Origin: an uncultured virus (IMG/VR IMGVR_UViG_3300012012_002042)
Taxonomy: Duplodnaviria > Heunggongvirae > Uroviricota > Caudoviricetes
Length of the DNA stretch: 44,045 nucleotides
Direction: 5' to 3' (one strand)
Virus record (IMG/VR): IMGVR_UViG_3300012012_002042
This document shows positions 1,467 through 38,746 of the stretch, in pieces; positions within the stretch are counted from its first letter, which is position 1; each line of letters opens with the position of its first letter. Below the pieces are notes generated by a model that was given only the letters and a program-made list of their open reading frames with translations, was not told the origin of the DNA and searched no databases. A program made the translations under genes and the position numbers.

Positions 1467-3514
1467 TCGTGGAAAAAATGGGCGTGTCCTCAATGCGCGC
1501 CTTCATCGACAAGTGTGATCAGCAGTATTACAACGGCAGCTCGGATGTCCACGACAGTCTCTATGACCAGGTCAAGGCGCAGCTGAAAGCCTCCTGCCCG
1601 GATGACCCTCGCCTGACCCGCGTCGGCCCGCCGGTGATGGACTCCACACACGGTAAGATTCGACACTCGCATCCGATGGGATCGCTGGAGAACGTGCACA
1701 CGCCGGCGGAGTTCGACAAGTGGTGGGACAGCGTTCTGGCTTCCTACCCACACGCACGTGCGAATTGCAGTCAGAAGGCAGACGGCAGCAGCGTGTCCGT
1801 CAAATATGTGGACGGAGAATTGAAGCAGGGTCTGACGCGGGGCAATCACGAGATCGGAGACGACGTCACATCGAACATCGCCATGATCCCGAATGTGCCT
1901 CTGGTTGCCCATTTGGATGAGCGACCCTTCACCGGGTTCGTCCGTGGGGAAGTCGTGCTCACGACTGCGGCGTGGCTGAAGTTGGATCCGGATCAGACTT
2001 CGAATGCGCGCAATATGGGTAACGGAATGTTGATGAGGCATTCTGGTGAAGGCTGCGATCAGCTCTTCTTTGCTGCGTTCCGTATTTTCGACGCGGACGG
2101 AAATCCGATTGGAAAAACGGAGACCGAATCGCTTGCCCTGCTCAAGCGCATGGGATTCGCCACGGTGAGCGCTTTCGGGCCGATAGCGGAAGTTTCGGAC
2201 AGCGCGGCAGTGCTGGCTCAATACGAACTCTACGCGAACCCCGAATACAAATTCCGGGACAAGCTTCCATATGAGATCGACGGACTGGTGATCAAAGTGG
2301 ACCAGTATGACATCCAGGAGAAAATGGGGGAAGTGGGCAATTGTCCGAAGTCTCAGCGCGCATTCAAATTCCCACCCCGCGGCGCGCCTGGCGTTCTGTC
2401 GGATGTGAAGATGCAACTCGGACGATGCGGCGCCCTGACTCCCGTGGCCGTGTTCGACATCCCTGTGAAAGTGGGAGGTGTGTCGGTGTCCACCGCGACG
2501 CTGCACAACTTCAGCATCATCGCCGAGTTGGACATTGCCATTGGAGACACAGTGATGGTGAGTCGAATGGGAGACGTCATTCCAGGCGTGAGCGCGAAGG
2601 TGTCCAACGGCAAGGATCGCAAACTGATCATCAAGCCGAAGAAGTGTCCGTTCACTGGCGGTCAGGTCGGGCATTTGGAGAATGCGGACGGCACGAAGAG
2701 CAAGGTGTTGTTCTCGCTGAGCTCTGGTGATTGTCCAGCGGTGAAGATTGCACATCTGCGCAAATGGGTGGAGACGCTTGAGATCAAGGGGCTGGGGCCG
2801 GTGTATTTGGAGGCACTGTTTGAGACGATGGTGGATCCAGGACCGAAGTATGGTGTCATAGGCGGCGCGCCCGGTGTAATATCGCCAGCGGACCGCGCCG
2901 GAAGAATGCAACGACTGGTGGAGACGCCGGCCGATCTGTATCGGCTAAAGGTGGATTCGGAGTGCGACGCTATCAGCCCGAAGATCATGGAAAAGGTGGT
3001 TGCGAATATTCAGGCATCGAAAGAAATCGAATTGTCGAAATTCCTGGCGGCCCTCGGCGTGAATTCGCTGGGTCACGATCGCTCGATCAAAATCCGGCAG
3101 ACATTGCCTGGAGAGTTTGACCGGCTCGAGGATTGGTTCAGCGGGAAGTTGGAGAAGTATGCGAAGGAAGCGAAATTAACCGGCTTGATCCGAAAGATCG
3201 GACCCAGCCTCAAAGAACTCAAACCAGTCATGGCAGATCTGCTCAAAGCGGGCGTAAAAGTGAAAGAAGGAAAAGCGAAGGGTGCCGTTGTCGGTAATTG
3301 CTTCTGTCTCACCGGGGAATTCCAGCAGACGAAGGATTCCTACCACAGGGAGATTGAGGATGCGGGCATGTCATGGGCACCTCGGTTCACCAAACACGTG
3401 ACGCATGTGGTGTCGATGAATCCGCACTCGAATACGAAGAAGTGTCAGGAAGCTCGCAATCAGGGGTTGCCAATCATCGGGCTGGATGAACTGCAGAAGC
3501 TGCTCGGGAAATGA
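1463..3514 (+). CDS. ligA: NAD-dependent DNA ligase
   Basis: YYNG..D..YD domain Ia; HPMGSL; KADG adenylation motif; LTRGN; VRGEV; EIDGLVIK; AFKF; ATLHN; GDVIP; HhH (IKGLGP, ALGVNSLG); C-terminal BRCT (CLTG...K...A...G.PII). ATG overlaps the upstream TGA. Confidence 0.95.
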   Translation: MIVEKMGVSSMRAFIDKCDQQYYNGSSDVHDSLYDQVKAQLKASCPDDPRLTRVGPPVMDSTHGKIRHSHPMGSLENVHTPAEFDKWWDSVLASYPHARANCSQKADGSSVSVKYVDGELKQGLTRGNHEIGDDVTSNIAMIPNVPLVAHLDERPFTGFVRGEVVLTTAAWLKLDPDQTSNARNMGNGMLMRHSGEGCDQLFFAAFRIFDADGNPIGKTETESLALLKRMGFATVSAFGPIAEVSDSAAVLAQYELYANPEYKFRDKLPYEIDGLVIKVDQYDIQEKMGEVGNCPKSQRAFKFPPRGAPGVLSDVKMQLGRCGALTPVAVFDIPVKVGGVSVSTATLHNFSIIAELDIAIGDTVMVSRMGDVIPGVSAKVSNGKDRKLIIKPKKCPFTGGQVGHLENADGTKSKVLFSLSSGDCPAVKIAHLRKWVETLEIKGLGPVYLEALFETMVDPGPKYGVIGGAPGVISPADRAGRMQRLVETPADLYRLKVDSECDAISPKIMEKVVANIQASKEIELSKFLAALGVNSLGHDRSIKIRQTLPGEFDRLEDWFSGKLEKYAKEAKLTGLIRKIGPSLKELKPVMADLLKAGVKVKEGKAKGAVVGNCFCLTGEFQQTKDSYHREIEDAGMSWAPRFTKHVTHVVSMNPHSNTKKCQEARNQGLPIIGLDELQKLLGK

Positions 3515-5751: not shown

Positions 5752-7428
5752 ATGATCAAGAAGTCGTTCCGCAGCATCTTGCCAAACCCAGTCAGCATTC
5801 TCCGCGCCGAAGGTCAGGCGCGGCCCCAGCAGCAGCAGAACCGTGACGGACTCTCCCAGTTCGTCCTCTGCAAGGACAAAACCGAGTTCATCAGGCAGCA
5901 GACCGGGCAGGTCTGTTCCTACAAGTTGAACAGTTTTGTCGGAGACATGATCCAGATCGCGCAAGTGATCGGGATCGCGAGGATCCACGGTGGTGAGGTC
6001 GCCACCTTCGCGCCGTTTGACTTCGCCATTCCGGGCGGGCAGATGGCGAAGGCGTCGGGCCGTGTCGGCACTCGCGAGCTGCAGGTCCCGTCCGAATACG
6101 GCGGCGACGGGCAGCTCATCATGGCGTTCTCCTTGATCAGGACGCACTGTGAGCCCCTGCTGATCGTGCCGCGCAGCATCGGGCTCAACGGTGCCCCGCT
6201 GATTGGCGGAGGTCATCCGCTGGTGAATGACATCTCGCGGATCTCGCCGGAATGGGTGGACACCGTCCCCCATGAATTCTACCTCACGGCGGACGACGAG
6301 CGGCGCACCCGTGTGCGCAAGGTCGAAATGCAACCGGCCTACGCGCTGGCGAACCTCAAGGGCATGTTCGACATGCCCGGGTTCGCCGTCGGCGAGTTCA
6401 CCGGGGCCGGAGGTACCAACCTCTCCATGAGCCCCGACCTGTTCAAGCGGGTCCGCGGCATGATGGAAAAGGACCTCTGCGAAATGGGGAACCTGGGGTG
6501 GCTCGAGGAGTATCTGACCATGGCCTCCAAGGCCATGGCGGGGTGCCCGCTCGCCGCCGGCGGGCACGCCACCGACTTCTTCCCCAGGACGGGACGATTC
6601 GGACCAGGGTGCCGCAACATCGGCATCCCCGCCGATATGGTGTCCGAAGCCACGGAGGAGACATTCGGACTCGCCTCGGCGGGCGACGAGGTGCCCGTCA
6701 CGGACACCCACACAGAGGTGACTGTCACGGACACCGTCACCTCCGCTCCGGCGGCGGTGAATCTCATCCCGGCGCGCGCGCCGGTGAGCAAAGGCGAACG
6801 TCGCCGCCTCCAAAAAGAGCTCGAGCGTAAGGCGAAAGCGGCGAAAGCCGCCTCCGCCTCCGTGCCCCAGGACCCAATGGCGATCCTGAGCTCCCTGGAT
6901 GGCACCGGCACCCCCGCGCCGTCCGAGACGGAACAGCCCGCCGCCCCGGTCGAGCCCACCCCGGTGGAAGTCACCCCGGTCGAGCCCACCCCGGTGGAAG
7001 AGCCCGCCCCGGTGGAGACGCCCGCCCCGGTGGAAGTCGCAGCCCCGGTGGAAGTCGCAGCCCCGGTGGAAATGCCTGCCGCCCCCACAATGAAGGCAGC
7101 AGGGGACATCCCCGCGGATGAGGTGGAAGTCGCAGCCCCGGTGGAAATGCCTGCCGCCCCCACAATGAAGGCAGCAGGGGACATCCCCGCGGATGAGGTC
7201 GAGGTACCAGTCGCGGCGGCGGTGGAGGAAGATGCTACCTTCACGGTGCGCCAGAAGGGTCACCGGCCCGGACCCAATGACATGGGTCGGTCCTTCGAAG
7301 AAGTCCAGGCGCTCTTTGACGCCGGGGACTTCGACGACATGGGCACCTTCGAGGTGATGGCGTCAAGCAATCCCGGCAAGTGGCTCCACCCGGCCATGCT
7401 GGGCTTCGAGGCCGGCGCCGTGAAGTAG
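5752..7428 (+). CDS. GC-rich hypothetical protein with Pro/Glu/Ala/Val low-complexity C-terminal half
   Basis: 558 aa ORF with strongly G/C-ending codons, PVE-type repeats, its own upstream leader and downstream hairpins. Confidence 0.75.
   Translation: MIKKSFRSILPNPVSILRAEGQARPQQQQNRDGLSQFVLCKDKTEFIRQQTGQVCSYKLNSFVGDMIQIAQVIGIARIHGGEVATFAPFDFAIPGGQMAKASGRVGTRELQVPSEYGGDGQLIMAFSLIRTHCEPLLIVPRSIGLNGAPLIGGGHPLVNDISRISPEWVDTVPHEFYLTADDERRTRVRKVEMQPAYALANLKGMFDMPGFAVGEFTGAGGTNLSMSPDLFKRVRGMMEKDLCEMGNLGWLEEYLTMASKAMAGCPLAAGGHATDFFPRTGRFGPGCRNIGIPADMVSEATEETFGLASAGDEVPVTDTHTEVTVTDTVTSAPAAVNLIPARAPVSKGERRRLQKELERKAKAAKAASASVPQDPMAILSSLDGTGTPAPSETEQPAAPVEPTPVEVTPVEPTPVEEPAPVETPAPVEVAAPVEVAAPVEMPAAPTMKAAGDIPADEVEVAAPVEMPAAPTMKAAGDIPADEVEVPVAAAVEEDATFTVRQKGHRPGPNDMGRSFEEVQALFDAGDFDDMGTFEVMASSNPGKWLHPAMLGFEAGAVK
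7048..7197 (+). repeat. Perfect 75-bp tandem duplication (VEVAAPVEMPAAPTMKAAGDIPADE x2), preceded by short CCGGTGGA repeats
   Basis: 7048-7122 is identical to 7123-7197 and in frame. Confidence 0.9.
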
Positions 7429-10253: not shown

Positions 10254-12188
10254 ATGGGGAAAACCATCACAGCATTGAGGCAGGGGAAAATCGATGAAGT
10301 CGACGATGACGAGGTCGATTATGATCTGCTCACGACGGATCAGCTTTACGCTACGAACATCAACCATATTCCGATGCCGAACGCGGTGCAGGCTCCGCGC
10401 TCATTTTACGGAGCACGCTTCATCAGTCAGGCCTGGCCGCTGAAACATCGGGAAGCGCCGCTCGTTCAGAATCTGAGGACTGGTACGAATGAGTCCTACG
10501 ACGATATTTACGGAGAATTCGCCGGCGCGGTGCGGGCACGGGAAAATGGGGAAATCATCGAAGCCTCGCCAGATCGGATTATTTTCAAAGGCGAGTCCGG
10601 CAAAGAACACGTGCACGACCTTTACAAGGACTTCATGTTCAACCGTAAATCGAGCGTCACTCAGAAGCCTGTGGTGGAAGCCGGCATGAAGGTAAAAAGA
10701 GGAGACCGCCTTGCTGCATCGAATTACACCGATGACAAAGGGACTCTGGCCATGGGGACGAATGCGCGCGTGGCGCTGATCCCTTACAAGGGGTGGACCA
10801 TGGACGATGCCACAGCCATCTCGGACAGTTTCGCCAAGCGGTTGACTTCGGAAATGACGCACTCCCACAAGCAGGAGTTCGATGATGACGTCAAAGGTGG
10901 TGTGAATCATTTCATCTCCCTGTTCCCGACCGTGTTCAAGAAGGAGCAGATCACCAATTTGGATGAGCACGGAGTGGCCAAAGTCGGCACGATATTGAAC
11001 ACTGGAGATCCGATGGTGTTGGCCACGGCTCCTCGGGTGATGACTGCCCGTGATGCGAATGTCGGTAAGTTGTCGAGGACGTTGCAGCAGACGCGAAAGA
11101 ATGCATCTACCACGTGGGATTTCGAAGACCCGGGTGTGGTGACCGATGTGGCTCACACGAGGAAGGGCAGCAAAATCGTGGTGAAGTCGTATTCGCCGGC
11201 GAAGGTCGGGGATAAGATCGTGCTGCGCACTGGTCAGAAACAGATCATTTCCAAGATTCTACCGGACGATCAGATGCTACGCGGCGTGGACGGAAAGCCC
11301 GTGGATCTTCTGCTCAACCAGCTCGGGTTGCCGAGCCGGGTCAATGCATCCCTGCCGTATGAATTGGCGCTGGGGAAAATCGCCAGGAAGATGGGGCAGC
11401 CGTTCAAATTGAATGCCTTCAACGAGGAAGGCACCTCTCGCCAACGTCAAGTGGAAGACCTGCTCAAACAGCATGGCGTGAGTTTTGAGGAGGAAGTTTT
11501 CGATCCAGTTTCCAACACGAAAATCGATCGGCCAATTTCGGTGGGCGACGGCTACGTGATGAAGCTGGTGCACTCAGGGGAGTTGAAGAAGTCCTCCCGC
11601 GGCGTCGGATCCTACGACAGCGACATGCAACCTCTGCGTGGCGGCAGTGCTGGCGGACAATCGAAACGCGTATCAGGCCTTGAACAATCCGCTTATCTCG
11701 CGGCCGGCGCATATGCCACCCAGCGTGAAAATGCCACTCTGCGCGGCACCAGGAGCGATGAATATTGGCGGCAAGTTCGTGCAGGGGAAACTCCGGCGGA
11801 ACCAGGGGAGCCATTTGTGTGGAAGAAGTTTCAGGCGCTGCTTTGCGGGTCGGGAATGTTCGCCAAGAAGCTGGGCAAGGGGCGGCTCCGTCTCGGACCG
11901 ATGACCGACAAAATTCTGGCACAGCAAAATCCGGTCGAATTGAAAAATGGCGAGCTGGTGGATTTGAACAATTTTGAACCCATCAGCGGGGGATTATTCG
12001 ATCCGGCACTCGTCGGAGGTTCAAAGTGGGGTCGCATATCGCTCCCCAAATCGCTACCCAACCCGGCGTTCGAAAATAGCATCAGGACACTCCTATCGAT
12101 CACGAAGAAAGAATTTGATGGAATAATTTCTGGCAAAGTGCACATTGGCCCTGATGGTAAAGTCATCAAAGTCCGCGAAGAGAGATAA
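10254..12188 (+). CDS. Phage multisubunit RNA polymerase piece: beta C-terminal half fused to the beta-prime N-terminus
   Basis: Beta motifs QAWPL..EAPLV, LAMGTNARVA..PYKGWTMDDA..IS, GDKIVLRTGQK, LLNQLGLPSRVN, YVMKLVH and GGQSKRVSGLE..A..A.GA, followed by beta-prime-like GPMTD, GEL, EPISGGLFDP, WGRISLP. Confidence 0.9.
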   Translation: MGKTITALRQGKIDEVDDDEVDYDLLTTDQLYATNINHIPMPNAVQAPRSFYGARFISQAWPLKHREAPLVQNLRTGTNESYDDIYGEFAGAVRARENGEIIEASPDRIIFKGESGKEHVHDLYKDFMFNRKSSVTQKPVVEAGMKVKRGDRLAASNYTDDKGTLAMGTNARVALIPYKGWTMDDATAISDSFAKRLTSEMTHSHKQEFDDDVKGGVNHFISLFPTVFKKEQITNLDEHGVAKVGTILNTGDPMVLATAPRVMTARDANVGKLSRTLQQTRKNASTTWDFEDPGVVTDVAHTRKGSKIVVKSYSPAKVGDKIVLRTGQKQIISKILPDDQMLRGVDGKPVDLLLNQLGLPSRVNASLPYELALGKIARKMGQPFKLNAFNEEGTSRQRQVEDLLKQHGVSFEEEVFDPVSNTKIDRPISVGDGYVMKLVHSGELKKSSRGVGSYDSDMQPLRGGSAGGQSKRVSGLEQSAYLAAGAYATQRENATLRGTRSDEYWRQVRAGETPAEPGEPFVWKKFQALLCGSGMFAKKLGKGRLRLGPMTDKILAQQNPVELKNGELVDLNNFEPISGGLFDPALVGGSKWGRISLPKSLPNPAFENSIRTLLSITKKEFDGIISGKVHIGPDGKVIKVREER

Positions 12189-15327: not shown

Positions 15328-16434
15328 ATGAAAGCAACCGTATCGAAAAATCTGATGGTCAGCGCGCTGGGAACATTGAACAAGGCATTCGCCAAACAGC
15401 GAAGTTCTCTGCCGGTTCTGAACCACGTGAATATTCAAGTGGGAGCGGAGGGGTTTACCCTGACCCGCACAGACTTGGACATGATGGTGATTGTGAAATG
15501 TCCAGCGACCGTGCAGGACGACTGGCGTGGTGATTTCTGTGTCCCGGCTCAGAAGATGGAACAGGTCATCGCCAGCATGCCAGGTGACACAGTGGAAATG
15601 GAAATGGAGCGTCTTACAGTCAGGTTCCGCAGCGAGAAATATTATGTCGAGATGTGTATCCTGCCTGGTGATGAATTCCCGGTGACTTCTGCGTCCGTTA
15701 TGGATGGGATTCACTTTCAGGTTGCGGCGGATGTTCTGCACCAGAGCCTTTCCCGTGTGAGTCCCGCTGTGGGAGATAGCGCGATATCCCACAACGGCGT
15801 GTGGTTTTCATTCCGTAATTCCAAACTGAATCTGTATGCCATGGATGCACGCCGCTGCCATGCGGAGAATAACGTGTTGTCGTCAATTGACGCTGCAAAT
15901 AATGACACGCTGATCCGAGAGGATCGTGTGAAAGCGTTTCAGATCGCCCTCGCCCTCGCGTCTGGAGATGTCGAGTTGATCGTTTCCGATACTTTCATCG
16001 TGTTGTGCACAGCGGATGTGACCGTGGCTTCTCGGGGTATGCGATTAGGGATGCCAGGGTTTGACAGAATCTTGGCGAAAGGTCATGTCACAGATTCTCT
16101 GCATGTGGATCCGACCGTCCTGGCCGAGGCCCTGAAGCGGGTCATGCTGATCGCCCCGGTGGACAAGCCTAGGGTGAAATTGGCTGTCGTGCGTGGAAGT
16201 AACTACTTATCCCTGACGTGTGAGAACGCCAATGTGGGTGACGCCCTCGAACGCGTGCCGATTAAGGAGTGGCAGGGGAATGATTTGCACATTACCCTCA
16301 ATGCACGATACTTGCTGGATGCTGTGCGGGTGGTTGACAAATTGCAAATGGTGAAGATCGATCTCAGCGGCCAGGAACCCGTTCATATTTCCGCAGATGA
16401 TTACCACGCTGTGATTGCCAGCATTCGCCAATGA
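15328..16434 (+). CDS. dnaN: DNA polymerase III beta sliding clamp homolog
   Basis: 368 aa; MKATVSK..., LPVLNHVNI, LTRTDLD, FCVPA, DEFP, AMDARR, LNARYLLDA, VIASIR C-terminus, all matching the DnaN pattern. Confidence 0.9.
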   Translation: MKATVSKNLMVSALGTLNKAFAKQRSSLPVLNHVNIQVGAEGFTLTRTDLDMMVIVKCPATVQDDWRGDFCVPAQKMEQVIASMPGDTVEMEMERLTVRFRSEKYYVEMCILPGDEFPVTSASVMDGIHFQVAADVLHQSLSRVSPAVGDSAISHNGVWFSFRNSKLNLYAMDARRCHAENNVLSSIDAANNDTLIREDRVKAFQIALALASGDVELIVSDTFIVLCTADVTVASRGMRLGMPGFDRILAKGHVTDSLHVDPTVLAEALKRVMLIAPVDKPRVKLAVVRGSNYLSLTCENANVGDALERVPIKEWQGNDLHITLNARYLLDAVRVVDKLQMVKIDLSGQEPVHISADDYHAVIASIRQ

Positions 16435-16895
16435 CGCAGCATACTCTGGACAAGCTGAAAGGGATCGCCAACAGCACGGGCTCGATGATGCTGAACTTCT
16501 CGCTCCCTGATACGTGCAAGGGTATTATTTGCGGCCAAGTCGATCAATTGAACGAGATCATTGCAGACGCAGAACGCGTCGACGCGCCCGCGGTATTATT
16601 CGTCTGCGGAGGTGTGTATGGGAAACCGCCGGACGAGAAATTCGCATTTGCCTCACCATCCGGCGCAGGCGCTCTGCCCTATGTGGCTGCACAACCGGAG
16701 GCGCTACAACTCTTCTGCCTGTGCGCGCATCACTCGTCGCTGTATCAGATAAACAAGGACTTCACCAAGGTCCACCTGGAAGTGCGAGGAAACGAGTGGT
16801 GGGACGTGACCAGGCATCCGAAGCAAGTGGACCTGACCCCCGAGCAGCAAACAATTCTGAGGGAGGCAGCGAAAAAGCCGTGGATGAAATCGTAA
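16431..16895 (+). CDS. Hypothetical protein
   Basis: ATGA overlap with dnaN. Confidence 0.55.
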   Translation: MTQHTLDKLKGIANSTGSMMLNFSLPDTCKGIICGQVDQLNEIIADAERVDAPAVLFVCGGVYGKPPDEKFAFASPSGAGALPYVAAQPEALQLFCLCAHHSSLYQINKDFTKVHLEVRGNEWWDVTRHPKQVDLTPEQQTILREAAKKPWMKS

Positions 16896-18196
16896 TTCAG
16901 TCACACGGCCTCGGCGTGGAGTCGCAAGCAATCCTGGAGAACTGGCACTACGACCCAACCAGCCGACCTTTCAAAGATTGGTCACAATTGATCGTGGTGA
17001 CGGCGCAGGTCGGCGAAGAGCACAAGAACGACACGGTCCCGCTCGCTGAGGCCCGCATGCTGCCAATTCTTCGGGAGCACAAGGTGCGCTTTGTGGAATT
17101 GGCCAGGCGCGGGCATTTGGAGGAGGATGGGATTGTCATTCTTCAGGATACCCGTGAGCCGTGGAAATTGAACCCTGATGGGGTTTACAAATTGTCCGAC
17201 GAACTGCTGCATTCCGGCACGGTGCCGCAGTTCGGAGGCGAGCACAGGTGCGCCATGAAATTCAAAGCATTTCCAATCGAAACGTGGCTGGCCTACGAGT
17301 TTCAGAATCGGCGCGAGGTGCCCGTGCATCACGTGTTCGGCTACAATGCCGACGAGACCACTCGCATCAGCAAATCCGACCTGCACATCACGCGCCATAA
17401 TTCAGATCGGGAAATTATTCACCCAGGTAAGTCGGTGCTGGAAGTGTTCGGGTTTAATTCGGAAGAGAGCAAACGAATCGAGCGCTCACGCAAATACGAT
17501 GGACCCGTCCGCACCGGAGCATACCCGCTGCAAGCCTGGGGCTGGAATCGGCAGAAGTGTTTGGACTTCATCAAGGAACGCTCCGGTCTGGATTGGAAGA
17601 AGTCCCACTGCTCCTTCTGCCCGTTTTGTGCGGAGGCGACAAAGGGTGAAGAGGGTGCAGTCAAACGCTGGCACGACTCGCCTGAGCAGACGGCACACGG
17701 CCTGATGGTGGAGCATAATTCGATGAGCTTCAACTTCCGCGGACACCTTTATCGGGACCGTGCATTGATCGATGTCATCCGTGCGAAGAACGTCACACCG
17801 GTGTTGGAAATATTCGAACGGAAATTGGATGCTGTCCCGTGGGGCCTGTATCACGTTCGGCGTATTTACACGGCCAAGGGGAAAGCCATACGCTGTGTGC
17901 AGCCGATCCTGAAAGGGACTCGAAACGAGATGCTGACTGAACTGTTGGCCTCGGTGAATCGTGCGCCGTGGTGGAAATGGTTTGAGCAGCGGAAGATCAC
18001 ATATTTGATGACGCACGAGCGGGAGCCGGAGAAGTATCCAACGCGCGAGGCTTTTTACGTGGCTGCGCCGGCCTTCATGGAATTGAAACTGCGCGGGCCA
18101 GTTGAAGTATTCGATGAGCGCTGGGATCGGGTAGGCAGAGGTTTGTCAATGAATCCAGGGAAAAACAAAATTGAAGAGGAGGAACTTACAACATGA
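16880..18196 (+). CDS. PP-loop / PAPS-reductase-like (adenine nucleotide alpha-hydrolase) protein
   Basis: SHGLGVES (SxGxDS-like), AQVGEE, RCAMKFK, GYNADE..R, YPL..WGWNR..C, KSHCSFCPF. Likely start is GTG 16880. Confidence 0.75.
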   Translation: MDEIVIQSHGLGVESQAILENWHYDPTSRPFKDWSQLIVVTAQVGEEHKNDTVPLAEARMLPILREHKVRFVELARRGHLEEDGIVILQDTREPWKLNPDGVYKLSDELLHSGTVPQFGGEHRCAMKFKAFPIETWLAYEFQNRREVPVHHVFGYNADETTRISKSDLHITRHNSDREIIHPGKSVLEVFGFNSEESKRIERSRKYDGPVRTGAYPLQAWGWNRQKCLDFIKERSGLDWKKSHCSFCPFCAEATKGEEGAVKRWHDSPEQTAHGLMVEHNSMSFNFRGHLYRDRALIDVIRAKNVTPVLEIFERKLDAVPWGLYHVRRIYTAKGKAIRCVQPILKGTRNEMLTELLASVNRAPWWKWFEQRKITYLMTHEREPEKYPTREAFYVAAPAFMELKLRGPVEVFDERWDRVGRGLSMNPGKNKIEEEELTT

Positions 18197-18898: not shown

Positions 18899-20992
18899 AT
18901 GATCACAATTCAACCGCCGGCCGAGATCAAAGGCCACGTATCGCAGAAAATGATCCACATGATGGATCGGGTATTTAACGGAAGTCTGGAAACATGCATC
19001 GTGGAAATCATCCAGAATGCACGACGCGCCAAGGCCACCCATATCGACGTCACCGCCACCTACGTGGCCGACTGCGGCAATGGCGCGCACCTGGTGCTCA
19101 AATTCCATGACAATGGCATTGGACTCGCCAATCCCCAAATGCTGGTGGAAGTGGCCGAGTCTTCGTGGACGCCGGACGTGACCTCAGTGGAAGATCCAGG
19201 TGGTCAGGGATTCTATGCTTTGATCACAGCCGCGACGGACGCCGGCGTGGAAGTGTGCTCTCGTGATTGGCAAGCGTTCATCTCGCGCGCTGTGGCGATG
19301 GGGAGTGTCGGCACTGCACCCATTTACGGAAGGGGTCCCATCGAGGGCACCAGTTTCGAATTCACCGTCAAGGTGCCGGAGAAATTCACCACCAGATATG
19401 GATACTCCTCGCACTGGGATAACGACCCGAAGGCACCCAATCCTCCGGAGGCAATCAAGGCTTTGCAGGGACATATCCACGAAGTGAGCGCGGTGGCTGG
19501 AATTACCATCTCGTTCAACGGGCGTCATCTTCCGTGTTTTGACTTCCTGACCGGAGCCATTGCAGTCACGGAATACCGTGGAGTGCGAGTGGGGATTTTC
19601 AGCCAGCGTATGAATTACGGCTTTGATGACTCAATACTCCCGTCTGAATACAAGTACTGGTGGCAGCCCAACAATGGTAACCCATTGCGAGAGAGGATTA
19701 ATTTCTTCGGATGTCACCCGCACACGCATACTGACGACTGTCTTCCGGAGTTGGAGTTTCTCGGGGAGAATGGGAAAATTGGCTATATGCTCAAATGGGA
19801 TATTCTTACCACAGAAGCTGTGAAGATGACACTACCACAACGGGATCACATCAAACGGTCTGTGGAAGTGGATGACTTGCTGAGATTCTCGAAGGATTTT
19901 CTGATCCGCACCTTCATGACACGCCTGGACGGAAAGCATCGCATGCGATTCACCAAGTGGAAGAGCATCAAGGATTGGGCGCCGGACGTGGAGATTCCTG
20001 AGTCTGTACCATATTTGGATCACTGGTATATCGATGACCAGAAGGATTGCGGCGGCGGTAACCTATGGCCCGAACGTCCTTCGGAATTCAAAGCGCCATA
20101 CAGCGCACTGAACAACATGCCGAAAGACGTGACCGTGCTGGTATTCCCGAATACGGATAATCGCAATATGCTGGCGTTTCATCTGCTGCTAGGCCTGTGC
20201 TGCGCTGTGGATTCTGACGCGGCACAGAGTGGTTACACAGAACCGCCCAAAGACGGAATATTCANNNNNNNNNNNNNNNNNNNNNNNNNNNNNNNNNNNN
20301 NCATTGCTGGAAAAGACTACGCGGTGTTTGAAGGAGACTCATCGAGTATCGGATATTCCTGGTATGACAATCTGACGTTTCTGACCGACGAGCGCAACAT
20401 TGTGGAGGTGCGTGCGACGAAGCGCGGGATGAAAGGCAAGATGTGTTTTGAGATCACAGGGGACGCACTGGAAGATACTGGTAATATGGAAGTCTGGGAG
20501 ACCGCGAAGGTGGACAAGATATTCCTGACATTCAAGGTGCCGGGGAAATTTGAGATGGAGCTACAACTCCCGTTTGTGTTGTCAATGACCGAGGATGAAG
20601 GCGCCAGCTGTAATGGCATGGACTGCTGCGGTGATCTGGTTTGGACACCAGGCGCGGAGAAGTGGGAGGACTTCATTTACGCACGTATCTGGAATCTGAT
20701 CGGGTGTTTTGATGGCGATCACGACGAATCTGCTTCTGAAGAGGCCTCTGGAAATGTTTACGATTACCTGCGTTCAGTATTTCACGGTCGCGAATCCCTG
20801 ATGACCAAGCGGATGGAGGAAGTCGCTGGCAAAGTGGTGCGGTATCTGAATGATGAGGCCCTGGGCACCGTTCCAAAGTCTGCCATCTTCAGGATTACGG
20901 AAAACAAGAAAAAGGTAAACAGGTGGGATCCTGCTGTTATTGTGAAGTGGGAAGTGACTCTGAAGAGTGGTAAAAAATTGAAATCCAAATGA
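18899..20992 (+). CDS. GHKL (HATPase_c/MutL/Hsp90-like) ATPase domain protein
   Basis: EIIQNARRAKAT (N box), HDNGIGL (G1), DPGGQGFYAL (G2), GTSFEF. Spans a 37-N gap at 20265-20301, so frame continuity is assumed. Confidence 0.8.
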   Translation: MITIQPPAEIKGHVSQKMIHMMDRVFNGSLETCIVEIIQNARRAKATHIDVTATYVADCGNGAHLVLKFHDNGIGLANPQMLVEVAESSWTPDVTSVEDPGGQGFYALITAATDAGVEVCSRDWQAFISRAVAMGSVGTAPIYGRGPIEGTSFEFTVKVPEKFTTRYGYSSHWDNDPKAPNPPEAIKALQGHIHEVSAVAGITISFNGRHLPCFDFLTGAIAVTEYRGVRVGIFSQRMNYGFDDSILPSEYKYWWQPNNGNPLRERINFFGCHPHTHTDDCLPELEFLGENGKIGYMLKWDILTTEAVKMTLPQRDHIKRSVEVDDLLRFSKDFLIRTFMTRLDGKHRMRFTKWKSIKDWAPDVEIPESVPYLDHWYIDDQKDCGGGNLWPERPSEFKAPYSALNNMPKDVTVLVFPNTDNRNMLAFHLLLGLCCAVDSDAAQSGYTEPPKDGIFXXXXXXXXXXXXXIAGKDYAVFEGDSSSIGYSWYDNLTFLTDERNIVEVRATKRGMKGKMCFEITGDALEDTGNMEVWETAKVDKIFLTFKVPGKFEMELQLPFVLSMTEDEGASCNGMDCCGDLVWTPGAEKWEDFIYARIWNLIGCFDGDHDESASEEASGNVYDYLRSVFHGRESLMTKRMEEVAGKVVRYLNDEALGTVPKSAIFRITENKKKVNRWDPAVIVKWEVTLKSGKKLKSK

Positions 20993-23935: not shown

Positions 23936-24216
23936 TGGACCTGACGAAATGCCCGAGCTGCAGAGGCCCTATAACACTGACGAGCGGTGAAAGCACTCTA
24001 CCTGAGAGTCGGCTGTGTTTGCAGTGTGCTGAAAAGTTACCAGGCTGGGCATACGAACTCTTGCAGGACGGACGCCAGCTGCTGCAAGCGATGAACGCGG
24101 ATCCCAGCACACAGCTACCGAAGTCGAGAGTGCATGATTTGATCGAAAGCATTCTCCTCCGCGTCGTTATCCGGCGACGTATGACGCAAGCTGAAGCCGA
24201 TGAACTGGACGATTGA
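23935..24216 (+). CDS. Small Zn-finger protein
   Basis: CPSC...CLQC; TGATG overlap. Confidence 0.55.
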   Translation: MDLTKCPSCRGPITLTSGESTLPESRLCLQCAEKLPGWAYELLQDGRQLLQAMNADPSTQLPKSRVHDLIESILLRVVIRRRMTQAEADELDD

Positions 24217-25366
24217 GACCCCTCCTGAGATTGAAGCCTTGCTCGCTGCCAGAGCCCCTGTGGCAGTCGGCGTCAGTGGCGGCAAGGACTCCGTAGCGTG
24301 CGTCCTGGCCGTGGCAGAGTATCTCCGTGAGGCTGGACATAAAGGACCATCACTCCTGGTTCATGCAGACCTTGGAATGGTCGAGTGGCAAGACTCAGGC
24401 CCCGCGTGCAAACGCCTGAGTCACTATCTGCAGGCCCGAGGGCCTGAGTTCAAATACCCGATCTCATGGGGATCAGCGGCGTCCTGGGTCGGGGATAAAC
24501 ATGGAGATTGGGTTCCGAATTGGCAGCTCCACACAGTCAGGCGTGCTGCTGGCGGTATGATGGAACGCTGGGAGAGCCGCTGGGCATCTTCCCAGCGCCG
24601 CTACGAGAGCCTGGAGTGTGTGAAGCTCATCCTGCCATGGTCCACACCGTCCATGCGTTTCTGCACCTCAGAATTGAAGTCAGCGCCGATCGCCAATTTC
24701 CTGAAGAAGATGTTTCCAAAACAGAAGGTGATTTCCGTGACTGGTATTCGAGCTGACGAATCCCCGAACCGGGCGAAGATGCCAGTGGCGAAACCGAATC
24801 CGCGGTTGCATCCTGGCAGCCTGGATTGGAACCCGATCCTGAAATGGCCTGTGCAGGCTGTGTGGAATAAAATAAAGCAGCACGGTTTGCCTCCTCACGA
24901 GGCTTACGGCACGTTCGGATCTTCCCGTGTGAGCTGCGCATTCTGCATCATGTCCAAGGCGGATGATTTGAGGGCTGCGCTGAGCGATCCTCGGAACATG
25001 GAGATTTACCGGCGCATGTGCATCCTCGAGCAAATCAGTGGCTTTGCATTTCAGCAGGGCAAATGGCTGAGTGACCTTGCACCCGAGCCGATTGCGAGCC
25101 AGTGGAAACAATCGATTCTCGTTTCCAAGGAGAAGGCGGCAAAGCGAGAGGCGATTGAGAAGCGGATACCGAAGGACTTGGAATTCACGAAGGGCTGGCC
25201 GTTGCGGATGCCGACTCTGGATGAGGCGGTGATCATCGCCAAAGTTCGGGCAGAAATATCCATTCTGCAGGGGATCACGCCCAGGTTCACGACTCCCATT
25301 GAGGTGTTAAAGCGTTACAAGGAATTGATGGATTTGAAGAAACTCAAAGAATTGAAAAATAAATGA
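24200..25366 (+). CDS. Phosphoadenosine phosphosulfate (PAPS) reductase family protein
   Basis: VSGGKDS PP-loop, HADLG.VEW, RFCTSELK, GIRADES.NRA, PILKW, HEAY..G.SRVSCAFCI. Confidence 0.9.
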   Translation: MNWTIETPPEIEALLAARAPVAVGVSGGKDSVACVLAVAEYLREAGHKGPSLLVHADLGMVEWQDSGPACKRLSHYLQARGPEFKYPISWGSAASWVGDKHGDWVPNWQLHTVRRAAGGMMERWESRWASSQRRYESLECVKLILPWSTPSMRFCTSELKSAPIANFLKKMFPKQKVISVTGIRADESPNRAKMPVAKPNPRLHPGSLDWNPILKWPVQAVWNKIKQHGLPPHEAYGTFGSSRVSCAFCIMSKADDLRAALSDPRNMEIYRRMCILEQISGFAFQQGKWLSDLAPEPIASQWKQSILVSKEKAAKREAIEKRIPKDLEFTKGWPLRMPTLDEAVIIAKVRAEISILQGITPRFTTPIEVLKRYKELMDLKKLKELKNK

Positions 25367-27826: not shown

Positions 27827-28891
27827 AAAACCCAGCCCCGGATGTAATTGAACACCTTAAACAAATAATTCATGACGAAGCCGAAAAAAGNNNNNNNNNN
27901 NNNNNNNNNNNNNNNNNNNNNNNNNNNNNNNNNNNNNNNNNNNNNNNNNNNNNNNNNNNNNNNNNNNNNNNNNNNNNNNNNNNNNNNNNNNNNNNNNNNN
28001 NNNNNNNNNNNNNNNNNNNNNNNNNNNNNNNNNNNNNNNNNNNNNNNNNNNNNNNNNNNNNNNNNNNNNNNNNNNNNNNNNNNNNNNNNNNNNNNNNNNN
28101 NNNNNNNNNNNNNNNNNNNNNNNNNNNNNNNNNNNNNNNNNNNNNNNNNNNNNNNNNNNNNNNNNNNNNNNNNNNNNNNNNNNNNNNNNNNNNNNNNNNN
28201 NNNNNNNNNNNNNNNNNNNNNNNNNNNNNNNNNNNNNNNNNNNNNNNNNNNNNNNNNNNNNNNNNNNNNNNNNNNNNNNNNNNNNNNNNNNNNNNNNNNN
28301 NNNNNNNNNNNNNNNNNNNNNNNNNNNNNNNNNNNNNNNNNNNNNNNNNNNNNNNNNNNNNNNNNNNNNNNNNNNNNNNNNNNNNNNNNNNNNNNNNNNN
28401 NNNNNNNNNNNNNNNNNNNNNNNNNNNNNNNNNNNNNNNNNNNNNNNNNNNNNNNNNNNNNNNNNNNNNNNNNNNNNNNNNNNNNNNNNNNNNNNNNNNN
28501 NNNNNNNNNNNNNNNNNNNNNNNNNNNNNNNNNNNNNNNNNNNNNNNTTCAGAACATTGGGTGGCACCGTATTCGGAATCGGACACGTGTCCAAATTGCG
28601 CGCTGAAAAATGTGCCGCCGTTCACCGCGCAATGAGTGAACCCGCCGATAAAAAAGATATTCAAAGCATGAAAAAAACAATTCAGATTGGAAGCGAGGAT
28701 TGGAACTCCCATGAGCCGAAGTTGGATCGGTAAAGATGCTGCGGTTCTCGTGAAACAGAAAGACCTGAGAAAGCTGTTGGATTACAATCAGCCTGGAGAG
28801 GAACGGCATTATGCGGAATCGTGTGATGAAAAATCCGCCAGAGGGCATATCATCCACACCATCCGGGCACTTCGTAAAAACCTCGACGCCG

Positions 28892-34038: not shown

Positions 34039-35987
34039 TTGGCTGAAACGCAGAGTCACGATCGACATGAGCGGGGTCACTGAACATGACCTGGAGACTG
34101 CATTCGAGGAGGCAGTGAAGCTTTTGAAAGAAGGCTACCTCTCAGGCCTGAATGGAAACGACACGGGCAATTTCACATTCAAAACCGAGACTCCCGATGA
34201 GTAAGAAAATTCGGTTTAGCACTCTGGTTCGGGATTACGGACCCGTGCAGCATGCGTTGGCCATGAGGCCGAAGGCTTGGAGGAAGGCGTGGGACGAGGG
34301 CAGGACTGCCACCGTGTATCACGCCGACGATGGTGACTGGTGTGCCCCGGTGATTGCCCTTGTGCGCAGAGCTGGATTTGTGAATACGATCTGCAAAATC
34401 GCCTGGGCGAAACCGTTACCGGATGACGTGACGGAAATCATTGGCATGCGGGATAATCCGGAAGCCTGGGATCTGTGTCACCAGTCGCACCGATGAAACC
34501 GTTCTACGTTCATATCACGGATCCTTCTTTCCGTGAGGATTCCGGATATTTCTATCAAGTCCGTGGATGGCCTACAGCGGCGCGTCAGCGTGGACACTTC
34601 ATTGATGATTGGGAGGCGGCGATGGCTGCGTGCAAGAAGCATCACCCTGACGGCTGGAACGTCACAGACGTAATTAAGTTAATGTGCCGATGGAAATGGC
34701 TGATGAAAGCCTGTGATTTCGTAGTCATCCATTACTGACACATGGTCGCACTATTCTGGACGTTCGTTATGCTGGGAGGTTTGTTTATTTTAACCGCAAC
34801 ATTCTGCAAATTATGACACGCGCAATATCCGATACCGAGAGGTGCCTGTGGTACAAGATGGCCTTGGTGAATTTGAAGCAGGCTGTCCTGCAGGTCGGCG
34901 CCGGCCATGGTGTGAAGCCGGAAGATGTCATCAAGGATTACGGCGGTTACGACCTTGACGCATGGATTCCGCAATTCAAGGACGACGCGCCCGAGTTCGA
35001 CGAGTTCCTTTGGAATATGGCCAGGGAGCATGAGGTTCCGAATGAGCAAAACGAGGTGTCGTGTGCCATGCTGCAATATTGGCACCATTACGAGGCGGCT
35101 GTTCGCGGATGGCCTGCCACGTTGACTGGGTCTGCGGCGAACATCAAGACGGCGTGGGGCGATTTGGCCTTGGCCATTGCCTACTCTCAGGAATGAACGC
35201 AGAGCAGCGTCAGGCCGCCGCGTTGGCTGAGTATTTGGTCTACCTGCGATCCCTGCCAAGTATTGTGACCGCGGAATTGTCCCATGTGGATGAGGAGGGC
35301 GTCGCCCATATTCTCGTGACGCAGTATCGGGAATTCAAGTTTGGAGAAATCACACTGACAGTCGAAAAATGAAATCGAAACCACCCCATCCGGTATTTGC
35401 TGAGGGAGATGAAGTGACCTGGACATCTCAATCACAAGGCTTCGAAAAGAGGAAGCATGGTAAAATCGTGCGTGTCGTAGCCAGCGGGATTGGTCCCTCT
35501 GTCCCGCAAGGAATGCGCGTGCAGGGAGCAGGCCTGGGTGGTGCGAGAAATCATCAGAGCTACCTGGTGGGCATCGGCAATATACTCTACTGGCCCCGCG
35601 TAACGCTTCTGCGGCCGTATCTCGGATCCAAAAAGCCTGCTGAGTGATGCGTCACGTGGTTTGGCTGAAATATAATTCGGCACAGGCCCAGGTTCACCAG
35701 GAGCCTACGGGCGTGTGGCAGACAAACGGAGATGGCCCGATGGGGCTGAAAACTGCGCAAAGAATTGCGAGGGAGATTCGCGAGCACTGGCCCGGGATAC
35801 AGACGAAAGTTTTACCAGAAAACCAAACACCAGAATGAAAGAAATCATTGGCGAATATGTCAAGCAGCAGTGGACCGGGAGAAAGCAGGATCATGCCGAG
35901 GAGATCCTGGATAACGGCTTGTCGATGGTAATTCCAGGGGACACACTCGTGAGGAAATTATTGATTGTGCTGCGATGTAGTTCGTGA
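34025..35987 (+). other. Run of small hypothetical ORFs: 34025-34204, 34197-34496, 34493-34738, 34813-35196, 35193-35372, 35369-35647, 35644-35838, 35835-35987
   Basis: Overlapping start/stop codons on the + strand. Confidence 0.5.
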
Positions 35988-36000
35988 GAATGCTCGCAAC

Positions 36001-36576
36001 ATGAGTAACGAGCAATTGGATTCAGACACGAAGGGTGGAGGGGAAGTGTATTTCTTCCATAATGGGGATTACGCGAAGATTGGTTATTCCACGCAGGAGC
36101 TGCGGAAAAGACTTTGGCAGGCTCATGTGTGGTCACCACACGAACTGACCATTGTCGGATGGATATGGCACGAATTCCCCGATGTGCTCGAAAAGACGGT
36201 GCATCTCCATTTGGCTCACGCCTGGATGCGTAAAGTGACAACAGGGAATGGGGAGTGGTTTAATATCACGGTAGAAGAGTGTAAAAAAACAATTAGCAAT
36301 TATAAAAATGGCAAAATCATCTGTATCAGCGGCTGGGGTTCGGCACATAGCACGGCTTACCGGCATCCGGCCCATCTTGTTCGACCGCTACGGGGGAACG
36401 AACACGACAAAATTGGACGACATGCAGAAAATGTATCTGAACGAAAACCTGGAATGTTGCATCCCAGTATTGAATGTGTTCAGTCTATTAAGCGCGATAA
36501 ACACGCCGTCGGTGGCGAAGCGTTTCTACGGGAAACAAGGCGCAAACCTCGGGATGATGGTTCAGGCGTTCGTTAA
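36001..36576 (+). CDS. T5orf172/MUG113 (GIY-YIG-like) domain protein; the part after ~36305 overlaps the next gene in another frame
   Basis: GEVYFF....YAKIGYS....KRL......SP..L.IV......LEKTVHLHL.......GEWF is the T5orf172 pattern. Confidence 0.8.
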   Translation: MSNEQLDSDTKGGGEVYFFHNGDYAKIGYSTQELRKRLWQAHVWSPHELTIVGWIWHEFPDVLEKTVHLHLAHAWMRKVTTGNGEWFNITVEECKKTISNYKNGKIICISGWGSAHSTAYRHPAHLVRPLRGNEHDKIGRHAENVSERKPGMLHPSIECVQSIKRDKHAVGGEAFLRETRRKPRDDGSGVR

Positions 36577-36889
36577 CATTGAAGCGTACAAAACGGAGGA
36601 TTCCATGCTCGCGACGATCTGTGACGATAAAGGGAAAATCTACACGCAATCCGACCCGCGCATCACAGTGATTGGACACGTAGCGCGGTTGAAGGGTGGG
36701 ATTCCAAATCCGAAATCCCGTCCGATGATTCCGACTGGATGGAGCGTGACGTTCGTGTTCGAGATTCAGGAGAATCCCACAGTAAATTCTGAGACACTGA
36801 TCAAGATGGTGGAACAGGGCGGGATCATCGGCCTTGGAACATTCCGCCCGATCTTCGGCCGCTATCGGGTAGAGTGGCTGAGCGCGTAG
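36308..36889 (+). CDS. Stand-alone RAMP/Cas7-like RNA-binding protein (putative Vipr-type effector)
   Basis: 193 aa. N-terminal strand RLTGIRPILF, CIP..NV.S.L helix start, RPMI..GWSVTFVFEI and a C-terminal Gly-rich loop GGIIGLGTFRPIFGRYRV, as in RAMP proteins. Directly precedes the GGC-NN array. Confidence 0.8.
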   Translation: MAKSSVSAAGVRHIARLTGIRPILFDRYGGTNTTKLDDMQKMYLNENLECCIPVLNVFSLLSAINTPSVAKRFYGKQGANLGMMVQAFVNIEAYKTEDSMLATICDDKGKIYTQSDPRITVIGHVARLKGGIPNPKSRPMIPTGWSVTFVFEIQENPTVNSETLIKMVEQGGIIGLGTFRPIFGRYRVEWLSA

Positions 36890-36899
36890 AGATTTAGAC

Positions 36900-37242
36900 G
36901 GCTAGGCGCGGCCGGGCTCGGCAGGGCTGGGCTCGGCAGGGCTGGGCGCGGCAGGGCAAGGCAAGGCAAACACGAGCACCTCGGGCGGATTTGAACAGAG
37001 GTTACAATTTTCTTGGCAGGGCAGGGCGAGGCACGGCTCGGCGAGGCATGGCTCGGCAAGGCAAGGCAAGGCAAGGCAAGGCAACCACGAGCACCTCGGG
37101 CGGATTTGAACAGAGGTTACAATTTTGTTGGCGGGGCAAGGCAGGGCATGGCTCGGCGCGGCTAGGCATGGCTCGGCAAGGCGGGGCAAGGCAACCACGA
37201 GAATCCCGGGCGGATTTGAACAGGGATATTATTTTCTTGGCA
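36900..37242 (+). ncRNA. Array of putative guide RNAs: (GGC-NN)13-14 tracts separated by a conserved 44-45 nt hairpin linker; at least 3 complete units, truncated by a gap
   Basis: Tracts at 36900-36969, 37015-37084 and 37130-37194; linkers at 36970-37014, 37085-37129 and 37195-37238; a 4th tract starts GGCA at 37239. The linker stem covaries. Confidence 0.85.
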
Positions 37243-37948
37243 NNNNNNNNNNNNNNNNNNNNNNNNNNNNNNNNNNNNNNNNNNNNNNNNNNNNNNNNNN
37301 NNNNNNNNNNNNNNNNNNNNNNNNNNNNNNNNNNNNNNNNNNNNNNNNNNNNNNNNNNNNNNNNNNNNNNNNNNNNNNNNNNNNNNNNNNNNNNNNNNNN
37401 NNNNNNNNNNNNNNNNNNNNNNNNNNNNNNNNNNNNNNNNNNNNNNNNNNNNNNNNNNNNNNNNNNNNNNNNNNNNNNNNNNNNNNNNNNNNNNNNNNNN
37501 NNNNNNNNNNNNNNNNNNNNNNNNNNNNNNNNNNNNNNNNNNNNNNNNNNNNNNNNNNNNNNNNNNNNNNNNNNNNNNNNNNNNNNNNNNNNNNNNNNNN
37601 NNNNNNNNNNNNNNNNNNNNNNNNNNNNNNNNNNNNNNNNNNNNNNNNNNNNNNNNNNNNNNNNNNNNNNNNNNNNNNNNNNNNNNNNNNNNNNNNNNNN
37701 NNNNNNNNNNNNNNNNNNNNNNNNNNNNNNNNNNNNNNNNNNNNNNNNNNNNNNNNNNNNNNNNNNNNNNNNNNNNNNNNNNNNNNNNNNNNNNNNNNNN
37801 NNNNNNNNNNNNNNNNNNNNNNNNNNNNNNNNNNNNNNNNNNNNNNNNNNNNNNNNNNNNNNNNNNNNNNNNNNNNNNNNNNNNNNNNNNNNNNNNNNNN
37901 NNNNNNNNNNNNNNNNNNNNNNNNNNNNNNNNNNNNNNNNNNNNNNNN

Positions 37949-38746
37949 ACAAAAATCGCAAAGACGCAGCAAACTGCAACATTGGAATGGATCGGGCCCG
38001 CCGTGGCCATGAAGTATATGGAGAAGAATAAGAACCCGAGGGCGGTCCGTCAGAGTCACGTCGACAAATACGTGCGGATCATCCAGGCCGGCGAATTTCG
38101 CACTGCCCAGAGCATCGGATTCGACCTGAATGGGTATCTTCGGGACGGGCAACACCGCTTGCTGGCCATCATCGCGACTGACACACCTGTTCAGATGTGG
38201 GTGATTCGAAATATGAGTGAGGATGAGGTTCTGGCCATTGATCAAGGCGAAAAACGGAACAATTCCGTCATTCTGAGTGTGGATACTCGTGCAGGCGCAG
38301 TCATCACCTTGGCTTCTACCATAATGGCTGGCTCCAGCCGTGCGCCGCTCACAAGTGAGTTGATGTGCGTGCGTGACGCCATTTTGGATCCGTGTATGGA
38401 TTTGCTGCACGGTTGCACGGCGGCGCCGAAGCATATCTCGTCACGTTTCGTGCGCTTGGCGGCCGTCCTGAATATGGTGAAATCAACGAAGCATTACGCT
38501 TATGTGAAAACGCAATATCCTGCGCTGGTTCGCAGCGACTTCGATGTGCAATCGAAGCCTATTCAGTATTTGTACAAACGGCTCACGATGTCCGTCAGGA
38601 GTATTACGAAAAACTTCCAGTTCATGACGGCATATCTTGCATTCGATCCAACAAAGTCCGAGCATAAGACCATCGTCATCAAGGACCCGACCAAGCTGTC
38701 CTCGGATATTCAAACGGAGCTTCTGGATCTAGCCACACGCGCGTAA
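37949..38746 (+). CDS. ParB-like / DGQHR-motif domain protein (5' end lies in the gap)
   Basis: N.NPRAVRQSHVDKY...I..GEF...SIGFD.NG.LRDGQHRLLAII....ID.G..R. The frame is open back to the gap edge at 37949. Confidence 0.8.
   Translation, partial: TKIAKTQQTATLEWIGPAVAMKYMEKNKNPRAVRQSHVDKYVRIIQAGEFRTAQSIGFDLNGYLRDGQHRLLAIIATDTPVQMWVIRNMSEDEVLAIDQGEKRNNSVILSVDTRAGAVITLASTIMAGSSRAPLTSELMCVRDAILDPCMDLLHGCTAAPKHISSRFVRLAAVLNMVKSTKHYAYVKTQYPALVRSDFDVQSKPIQYLYKRLTMSVRSITKNFQFMTAYLAFDPTKSEHKTIVIKDPTKLSSDIQTELLDLATRA

Follow-up and report, generated by a model that had tools for sequence, protein, structure and literature searches.

The 44,045-nucleotide stretch of DNA that we analysed (hereafter the window) comes from an uncultured phage of a lake, and its segment 35965-37242 very probably constitutes a VIPR (Viral Interference Programmable Repeat) system, composed of a Vipr protein of the RAMP type, a T5orf172-domain partner and four or more vrRNA genes in an array, in which the variable NN dinucleotides are the guide letters. 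The assignment is based on homology and on published work, the locus having a Vipr-like RAMP beside GGC/NN arrays that lie on its strand and carry a structured tail. The features of the locus are as follows:

35965..36576, plus strand: T5orf172/MUG113-domain gene, 203 aa, candidate vap-like (Pfam PF13455, E 1.1e-8; PF10544, E 3.5e-8)
36308..36889, plus strand: vipr, 193 aa, single-RRM RAMP (Cas7-like) with the C-terminal G-loop GLGTFRPIFGRY (profile, AF2 and Foldseek)
36900..36969, plus strand: repeat tract of vrRNA 1 (guide 1), 14 perfect GGCNN units
36970..37014, plus strand: tail of vrRNA 1, consisting of ACGAG, a 5-bp stem with the loop GGGCGG-ATTTG-AACA, then TACAATTTTCTT
37015..37084, plus strand: repeat tract of vrRNA 2 (guide 2), 14 perfect GGCNN units, the final six with AA
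37085..37129, plus strand: tail of vrRNA 2, hairpin as in tail 1
37130..37194, plus strand: repeat tract of vrRNA 3 (guide 3), 13 perfect GGCNN units
37195..37238, plus strand: tail of vrRNA 3, with a compensatory stem (ATCCC/GGGAT vs ACCTC/GAGGT)
37239..37242, plus strand: vrRNA 4, first four bases GGCA, cut by the N-run 37243-37948

VIPR systems were described in 2026 preprints as CRISPR-like DNA silencers of phages (10.64898/2026.04.26.720920, 10.64898/2026.04.26.720927, 10.64898/2026.10.15.759431); they have been proposed as an ancestor of CRISPR RAMPs. According to the text of the first of these, a vrRNA has 9-16 GGY/NN pentamers and ends in a structured tail that does not vary, and Vipr polymerises on it with one protomer per repeat. 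The GGY bases are sequestered by Vipr and the NN bases pair with dsDNA, the paired dinucleotides lying one unread base apart, with the skipped base mostly at the codon wobble position. This 1-nt skip rule is backed there by in-vitro and GFP tests, the skip length having been determined experimentally for type II systems only (10.64898/2026.04.26.720920). Structures of the Vipr filament and of the triplex were solved by cryo-EM (10.64898/2026.04.26.720927). The natural targets described are satellites, prophages, phages and rival VIPR loci (10.64898/2026.04.26.720920, 10.64898/2026.10.15.759431), and self-targets are absent in the systems presented (10.64898/2026.04.26.720920).

The array of the window starts 11 nt past the vipr stop codon, on the vipr strand. 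Inspection of the sequence revealed three head-to-tail units at 36900-37238, each composed of a GGCNN tract and a 44-45-nt tail, and Tandem Repeats Finder (TRF) reported a 115-nt period with 2.6 copies. The array continues into the N-run 37243-37948, and the number of vrRNA genes is at least four. In the 44,045 bases of the window, both strands included, the three tracts are the only runs of four or more GGCNN units. Fourteen successive GGC triplets at 5-nt steps cannot have arisen by chance. The NN strings given in the preliminary description, which had been made from the letters of this region, agree exactly with the sequence: TA GC CG TC AG TG TC AG TG GC AG AA AA AA for guide 1; AG AG GA AC TC GA AT TC followed by six AA for guide 2; and GG AA AG AT TC GC TA AT TC AA GG AA AA for guide 3. 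Given its six AA units, guide 2 has only eight informative units. In guide 1, TC AG TG occurs twice, which constitutes an internal three-unit duplication (36910-36957; TRF period 15, 93% matches), so that a target of this guide read with a 1-nt skip would contain a 9-bp tandem repeat. It had also been remarked that CC, CT, CA, TT and GT are never used. None of the five occurs in the 41 units that can be seen, but their absence is a small-sample effect (P 0.26): when 28 non-AA units were drawn from the family frequencies, at least five of the 15 dinucleotides were missing in 26% of trials, and CA, CC, CT, GT and TT are all present in related loci, at 0.9-5.1% each of 682 units. Across the family, C is depleted at the first N position (11%). 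The reading of the reverse-complemented guides as codon prefixes started from correctly derived strings, but it has no discriminating power because nearly every dinucleotide can start a codon.

The product of the ORF 36308-36889 has 218 unnamed homologues in metagenomes, as found by homology search. Profile A1, an alignment of 35 vipr homologues, matched the PDB entry 36pp_D ('SUSP1 Vipr protein') with an E-value of 9.3e-5, in the region of the thumb and the G-loop; the similarity is distant, the alignment being limited to the 52 C-terminal positions of the profile. Residues R138 and F179-R180-P181 of the window Vipr align with R138, W178, R179 and P180 of SUSP1 Vipr, and T178 with SUSP1 D177. 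In the structural description of SUSP1 Vipr, the thumb Arg and the aromatic-Arg-Pro residues of the G-loop contact G2 and Y3 of the repeat (10.64898/2026.04.26.720927). The AF2 model of the window Vipr (pLDDT 88, pTM 0.83) yielded 122 Foldseek matches at E≤1e-3, with Cmr4, Csm3 and type VII Cas7 at the top (E 1.3e-6 to 3e-5). Like these Cas7 proteins of Class 1 CRISPR systems, Vipr has the predicted fold and the C-terminal glycine-rich loop, and in both systems the guide is periodically interrupted by protein subunits. Unlike in Class 1 CRISPR, a CRISPR array, other cas genes and a second RRM are missing here: no other cas-like Pfam or PHROG match was found among 19 neighbouring proteins, and no repeat-spacer array was found in the window. 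The periods also differ, since in Class 1 CRISPR the period is 6 nt with one nucleotide flipped, whereas in VIPR it is 5 nt with three sequestered, and the guide is noncontiguous.

The context of the locus is that of a phage. The window looks like the part of a large phage genome that serves replication and transcription, with all genes on the plus strand, and includes, within 1415-25366:

1415-3514, plus strand: NAD-dependent DNA ligase
10254-12188, plus strand: RNA polymerase beta-like protein
15328-16434, plus strand: sliding clamp
16514-18196 and 24200-25366, plus strand: two PAPS-reductase-like proteins

The window contains three N-runs that amount to 1,400 bases (20265-20301, 27891-28547 and 37243-37948), two of which break open reading frames; one of the three hides both the rest of the array and the first part of a ParB-like gene (37982-38746). 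Within the ORF 5752-7428, the coding sequence at 6944-7199 is tandemly repeated, with periods of 15, 18, 30, 36 and 75 nt and two perfect 75-nt copies. The relatives found in a genome collection, namely a Woesearchaeota MAG and a Rhodoferax MAG represented by a short contig, were too few for a host assignment.

The organisation of the window locus recurs in other viral contigs. Eight or more successive GGCNN units were found in at least 139 viral-contig loci, and several of these contain, flanked by the tracts, a gene with a product that ends like that of the ORF 36308-36889. Adjacency was analysed in the 35 viral-contig loci that encode a full Vipr homologue: a same-strand GGYNN array of at least five units lies beside vipr in 33 of them, all except L187 and L190, and an opposite-strand array in none of the 35. 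Among the matches listed, 81 loci have at least 3 kb of sequence, and only 28 of these encode a protein matching the Vipr family profile; the remaining loci may represent further types of Vipr, solo vrRNAs or repeats of an unrelated nature. The distinct tracts of nine or more units in the relatives (n = 62) comprise 9-21 units (median 14), and C is the Y base in 981 of their 988 units. Of the 62 tracts, 47 have AA as the final unit, 25 as the penultimate one and 19 as the one before that, compared with about 0-20% at other positions. The 3'-terminal AA unit is thus a family-wide feature and not a sign of decay. The division of each unit of the array into a variable 5' region and a constant 3' end converging on GGCAA, as proposed in the preliminary description, is borne out by these counts and by the covariation of the tail hairpin described below.

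The tails have the consensus C-A/C-ACGAG, stem, GGGCGG-ATTTG-AACA, stem, TACAATTTTCTT; in tail 1 the 5-bp stem is formed by 36978-36982 and 36998-37002. Among 17 distinct tails the five stem positions are paired in 84 of 85 cells, with three to five pair types at each of pairs 2-5, and a sixth position is never paired. The covariation of the stem indicates that the hairpin is real, and its GGGCGG...AACA loop is conserved. Single-sequence folding of the whole units was uninformative (z -2.1, -0.3 and +0.1), so that covariation was required to recognise the hairpin. This tail design is common to the clade closest to the window (62-68% protein identity). A pseudoknot like that of SUSP1 was not seen when the tails were inspected for hairpins and covariation. 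Two further classes of tail were noted among the relatives. In the second class, ACACAAGGGCGGCAC...GTGCCGCCC is followed by a terminator-like T-run in vrRNAs located downstream of vipr (L166, L168-L171, L173, L174); the third, ACACACTGCA...TGCAG..GTTTGC, occurs in a clade of 55-60% identity (L176-L189, L196). In some phages two tail classes are found within one locus. A likeness of the tail to a tRNA T-loop was considered and dropped after the Vipr match; ARAGORN returned nothing, nor did Rfam with gathering and E-value thresholds. A consensus scan detected no promoter-like sites, and the corresponding terminator scan detected none in the array, the single terminator-like site lying within vipr, at 36467-36449 of the minus strand. 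A search of viral contigs with a conserved 16-mer of the tail matched 23 loci (~13 independent), none of them beside GGCNN arrays, and these were regarded as chance matches.

The gene preceding vipr encodes a protein with a T5orf172 domain, a domain of the GIY-YIG-like kind. The phrog_8130 profile covers residues 22-169 of this product and thereby reaches into the overlap with vipr, where the two ORFs share 269 nt in different frames, vipr always being in the +1 frame. Of the 35 related loci, 29 have a homologue of the T5orf172 gene immediately before vipr. Its frame runs without a stop for 185-293 nt into the part of vipr that is conserved, as seen in 18 of the 19 loci examined; the third frame across the overlap is also often open. 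Dual coding in the overlap is suggested by these sequence comparisons but not proven. The T5orf172-domain gene may be a vipr-accessory (vap) gene. The T5orf172 domain is not named in the main text of the preprint, in which the definitions of types I-VII and of vap1-6 are placed in the figures and supplement (10.64898/2026.04.26.720920).

Comparison with type II VIPR systems, those of Escherichia phage SUSP1 and of a Pseudomonas fulva prophage, brought out both shared and distinct features. As in type II, a small RAMP gene is flanked by same-strand vrRNA genes, several of them downstream of vipr, in a phage context and with no self-target; the GGY/NN pentamers (13-14 units here, 9-16 in the published systems) are followed by a structured 3' tail; and the thumb Arg and the aromatic-Arg residues of the G-loop align. 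On the other hand, the window protein is distant from the type II proteins, with a profile E-value of 9e-5 that refers to the C-terminal part only. The tail of the SUSP1 clade has a pseudoknot, whereas that of the window is a 5-bp hairpin with a GGGCGG...AACA loop. The vap product of type II is a predicted DNA-binding protein, whereas the neighbour in the window has a T5orf172/MUG113 domain and its gene overlaps vipr by ~270 nt. Finally, the clade of the window differs from type II in that the final one to three units are usually AA.

The preliminary description had proposed that the targets are gapped, with every third base, the wobble position, skipped. The rule itself coincides with the published 1-nt skip rule and would extend to the clade of the window by homology, the skip length being assumed from type II; as to the guides visible here, none of the three has a match above chance. 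In 0.93 Mb of loci, the window included, no self-target with at least 80% NN match was found, and the best full-guide matches with a 1-nt skip were 20/28, 20/28 and 19/26. The guide cores compared with the window itself, its 1,400 N bases excepted, gave at most 15/22, 12/16 and 15/22 with a 1-nt skip; these values and those of the full guides are within the range of the shuffles. When 243 distinct guides of at least 10 units were compared with the 0.93 Mb of loci, no enrichment was seen at any skip from 0 to 3: matches of at least 80% numbered 38, 37, 24 and 24 for the real guides and 18, 31, 24 and 28 for the shuffled ones (one shuffle per guide). A database of this size is far too small, and this many-against-many comparison therefore says nothing about the skip rule.

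Viral contigs were further scanned with seeds of 18 specified bases, matched exactly with a 1-nt skip, for which ~0.8 chance matches per scan are expected (scaled from the scan with the tail 16-mer). Units 1-9 of guide 1 gave two matches, which extended to 19/28 and 21/28, units 1-9 of guide 2 gave none, and units 1-9 of guide 3 gave two identical matches at 21/26. Units 3-11 of guide 1 matched 23 sites, which extended to 18-22/28 only. Many of these are in collagen-like Gly-X-Y or other 9-nt-periodic repeats, where matches come cheaply because of the internal three-unit duplication of guide 1, and the skipped base falls at codon positions 1, 2 and 3 in 9, 13 and 1 of the 23 sites. The seed of units 3-11 of guide 3 yielded two identical matches that extended to 23/26 (L236, 1495-1532, and L237 on the opposite strand). 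They lie in a ~297-aa Gln/Glu-rich, scaffold-like phage ORF, where the base skipped is the second of the codon, and the site has no homology to the window; a rough estimate of the probability of such a match by chance is 0.1-0.4 after five scans. Apart from units 3-11 of guide 1, the seeds thus matched at about the number of loci expected by chance.

A metagenome scan with units 1-11 of guide 1, required to match exactly, returned a single site (22/22; L205, 2001-2032). It is located inside a gene for OprB, a carbohydrate porin (1411-2775; Pfam E 2e-69), where the skip again falls on codon position 2; the AA units match there at 1 of 6, and the site is itself a 9-nt tandem repeat. In 401 genomes of one bacterial order, the guide 1 pattern had five matches with up to two mismatches and its reversed control also had five. 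The chance rate of the pattern is thus well above the uniform estimate, and the porin match, which is not in the wobble phase, cannot be called a target; we treated it as a chance match. Overall, no natural target of guides 1-3 above chance was found in the 0.93 Mb of loci, the five viral-contig seed scans, the metagenome scan and the 401 genomes.

Strains related to the window were compared using contigs from four runs of DNA from lakes or fresh water; none of the listed runs in which the stretch occurs is recorded as RNA. Two of the four (X1 and X2), which belong to the same study, have a contig whose vipr region differs from that of the window by 11 letters over 669 (~98% identical). After vipr this contig goes on with a first guide unlike that of the window: it is without 36897-37129, which comprises guides 1 and 2, and carries 14 other letters, with two other units, before guide 3. 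The comparison is consistent with guide turnover between strains that have ~98% identical vipr genes. Five variants were listed in the tracts, all at N positions (36933, 36934, 36939, 37163 and 37169); they carry little weight because contigs of other guides can align through the shared GGC scaffold.

Other readings of the locus were weighed against these data. We consider it very unlikely that the locus is VIPR but the visible vrRNAs act as decoys that soak up the Vipr of a rival, as competitors, or are decaying copies. Solo vrRNAs of satellites and phages that redirect or compete for Vipr have been described (10.64898/2026.10.15.759431), guide 2 closes with six AA units, guide 1 has its internal duplication, and the guides are without a found target. 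However, the array of the window lies directly behind an intact and conserved vipr gene, GGC is perfect in all 41 units, the tails retain their covarying stems, and the terminal AA is a feature of the family.

Even less probable is a function in which only the GGC triplets matter, as binding sites for an oligomeric protein that would wrap RNA or DNA in the manner of TRAP, the NN being meaningless spacers and the tracts regulating their neighbours in cis. The ring protein TRAP binds GAG/UAG triplets of the trp leader, which are separated by 2-3 spacer bases. The trp leader RNA shares with the array a conserved triplet every 5 nt and one protein subunit per repeat, but a TRAP-like spacer model was dropped after the Vipr match; the spacers in the TRAP system carry no information and TRAP is not a RAMP, whereas in VIPR the spacer dinucleotides are the guide. 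That no target was found for any guide, that the 3' units are low-information AA, and that in several relatives the tract lies just 5' of a ribosome-binding site and start codon would fit GGC-only binding. In the window, however, the array is placed after a gene and not in a leader, the neighbouring protein is a RAMP related to a solved Vipr, and between strains the NN content varies while the GGC scaffold is fixed. In addition, the preprint text reports that altering the NN bases alone redirects Vipr to a new DNA target both in vivo and in vitro (10.64898/2026.04.26.720920).

That the repeats are merely low-complexity coding sequence or an assembly artefact can be dismissed as hardly conceivable: although mechanical ORFs cross the region (36902-37198, minus; 36991-38031, plus) and the tract adjoins an N-run, the 5-nt period is out of the codon step, TAG occurs in one plus-strand frame of tract 1, the same architecture recurs in at least 139 loci on viral contigs and in 33 of the 35 loci that encode a homologue, and the tracts are covered by independent lake metagenome contigs.

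With the locus read as a VIPR system, a mechanism can be proposed by analogy with SUSP1 and P. fulva. Each vrRNA of ~115 nt would be coated by Vipr, with one protomer per GGCNN unit; Vipr would sequester the GGC and present both N bases. These 13-14 NN pairs would then bind dsDNA carrying the complementary dinucleotides, with one unread base between them (NNxNNx...), and the resulting gapped R-loop would keep a competing mobile element from being transcribed. The vrRNA would be capped at its 3' end by the hairpin tail, and the last one to three AA units belong to a semi-constant region found throughout the family.

It is possible, though we consider it rather doubtful, that the lake-phage clade represents a variant of VIPR beyond the characterised type II in three respects, namely guide length, the T5orf172 partner and porin silencing. 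The guide may be shorter than the tract, with one to six of the 3' GGCAA units serving as a constant spacer or anchor beside a simple hairpin cap, or imposing on targets a PAM-like requirement for AAnAA. The partner gene may be translated out of frame across the first ~270 nt of vipr. If the match of guide 1 to the OprB gene were a true one, which is the less likely case, the phage would use VIPR to silence an outer-membrane porin of its host, for example to exclude rival phages.

The importance of VIPR systems lies in RNA-guided recognition of noncontiguous DNA in phages, the gapped code of which is already in print (2026). The gapped-target rule can be read from the raw sequence of such a locus, as was done in the preliminary description. 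To this picture the locus of the window adds a covarying hairpin tail, terminal AA units, a T5orf172 neighbour that overlaps vipr, and differences between strains that are consistent with guide turnover.
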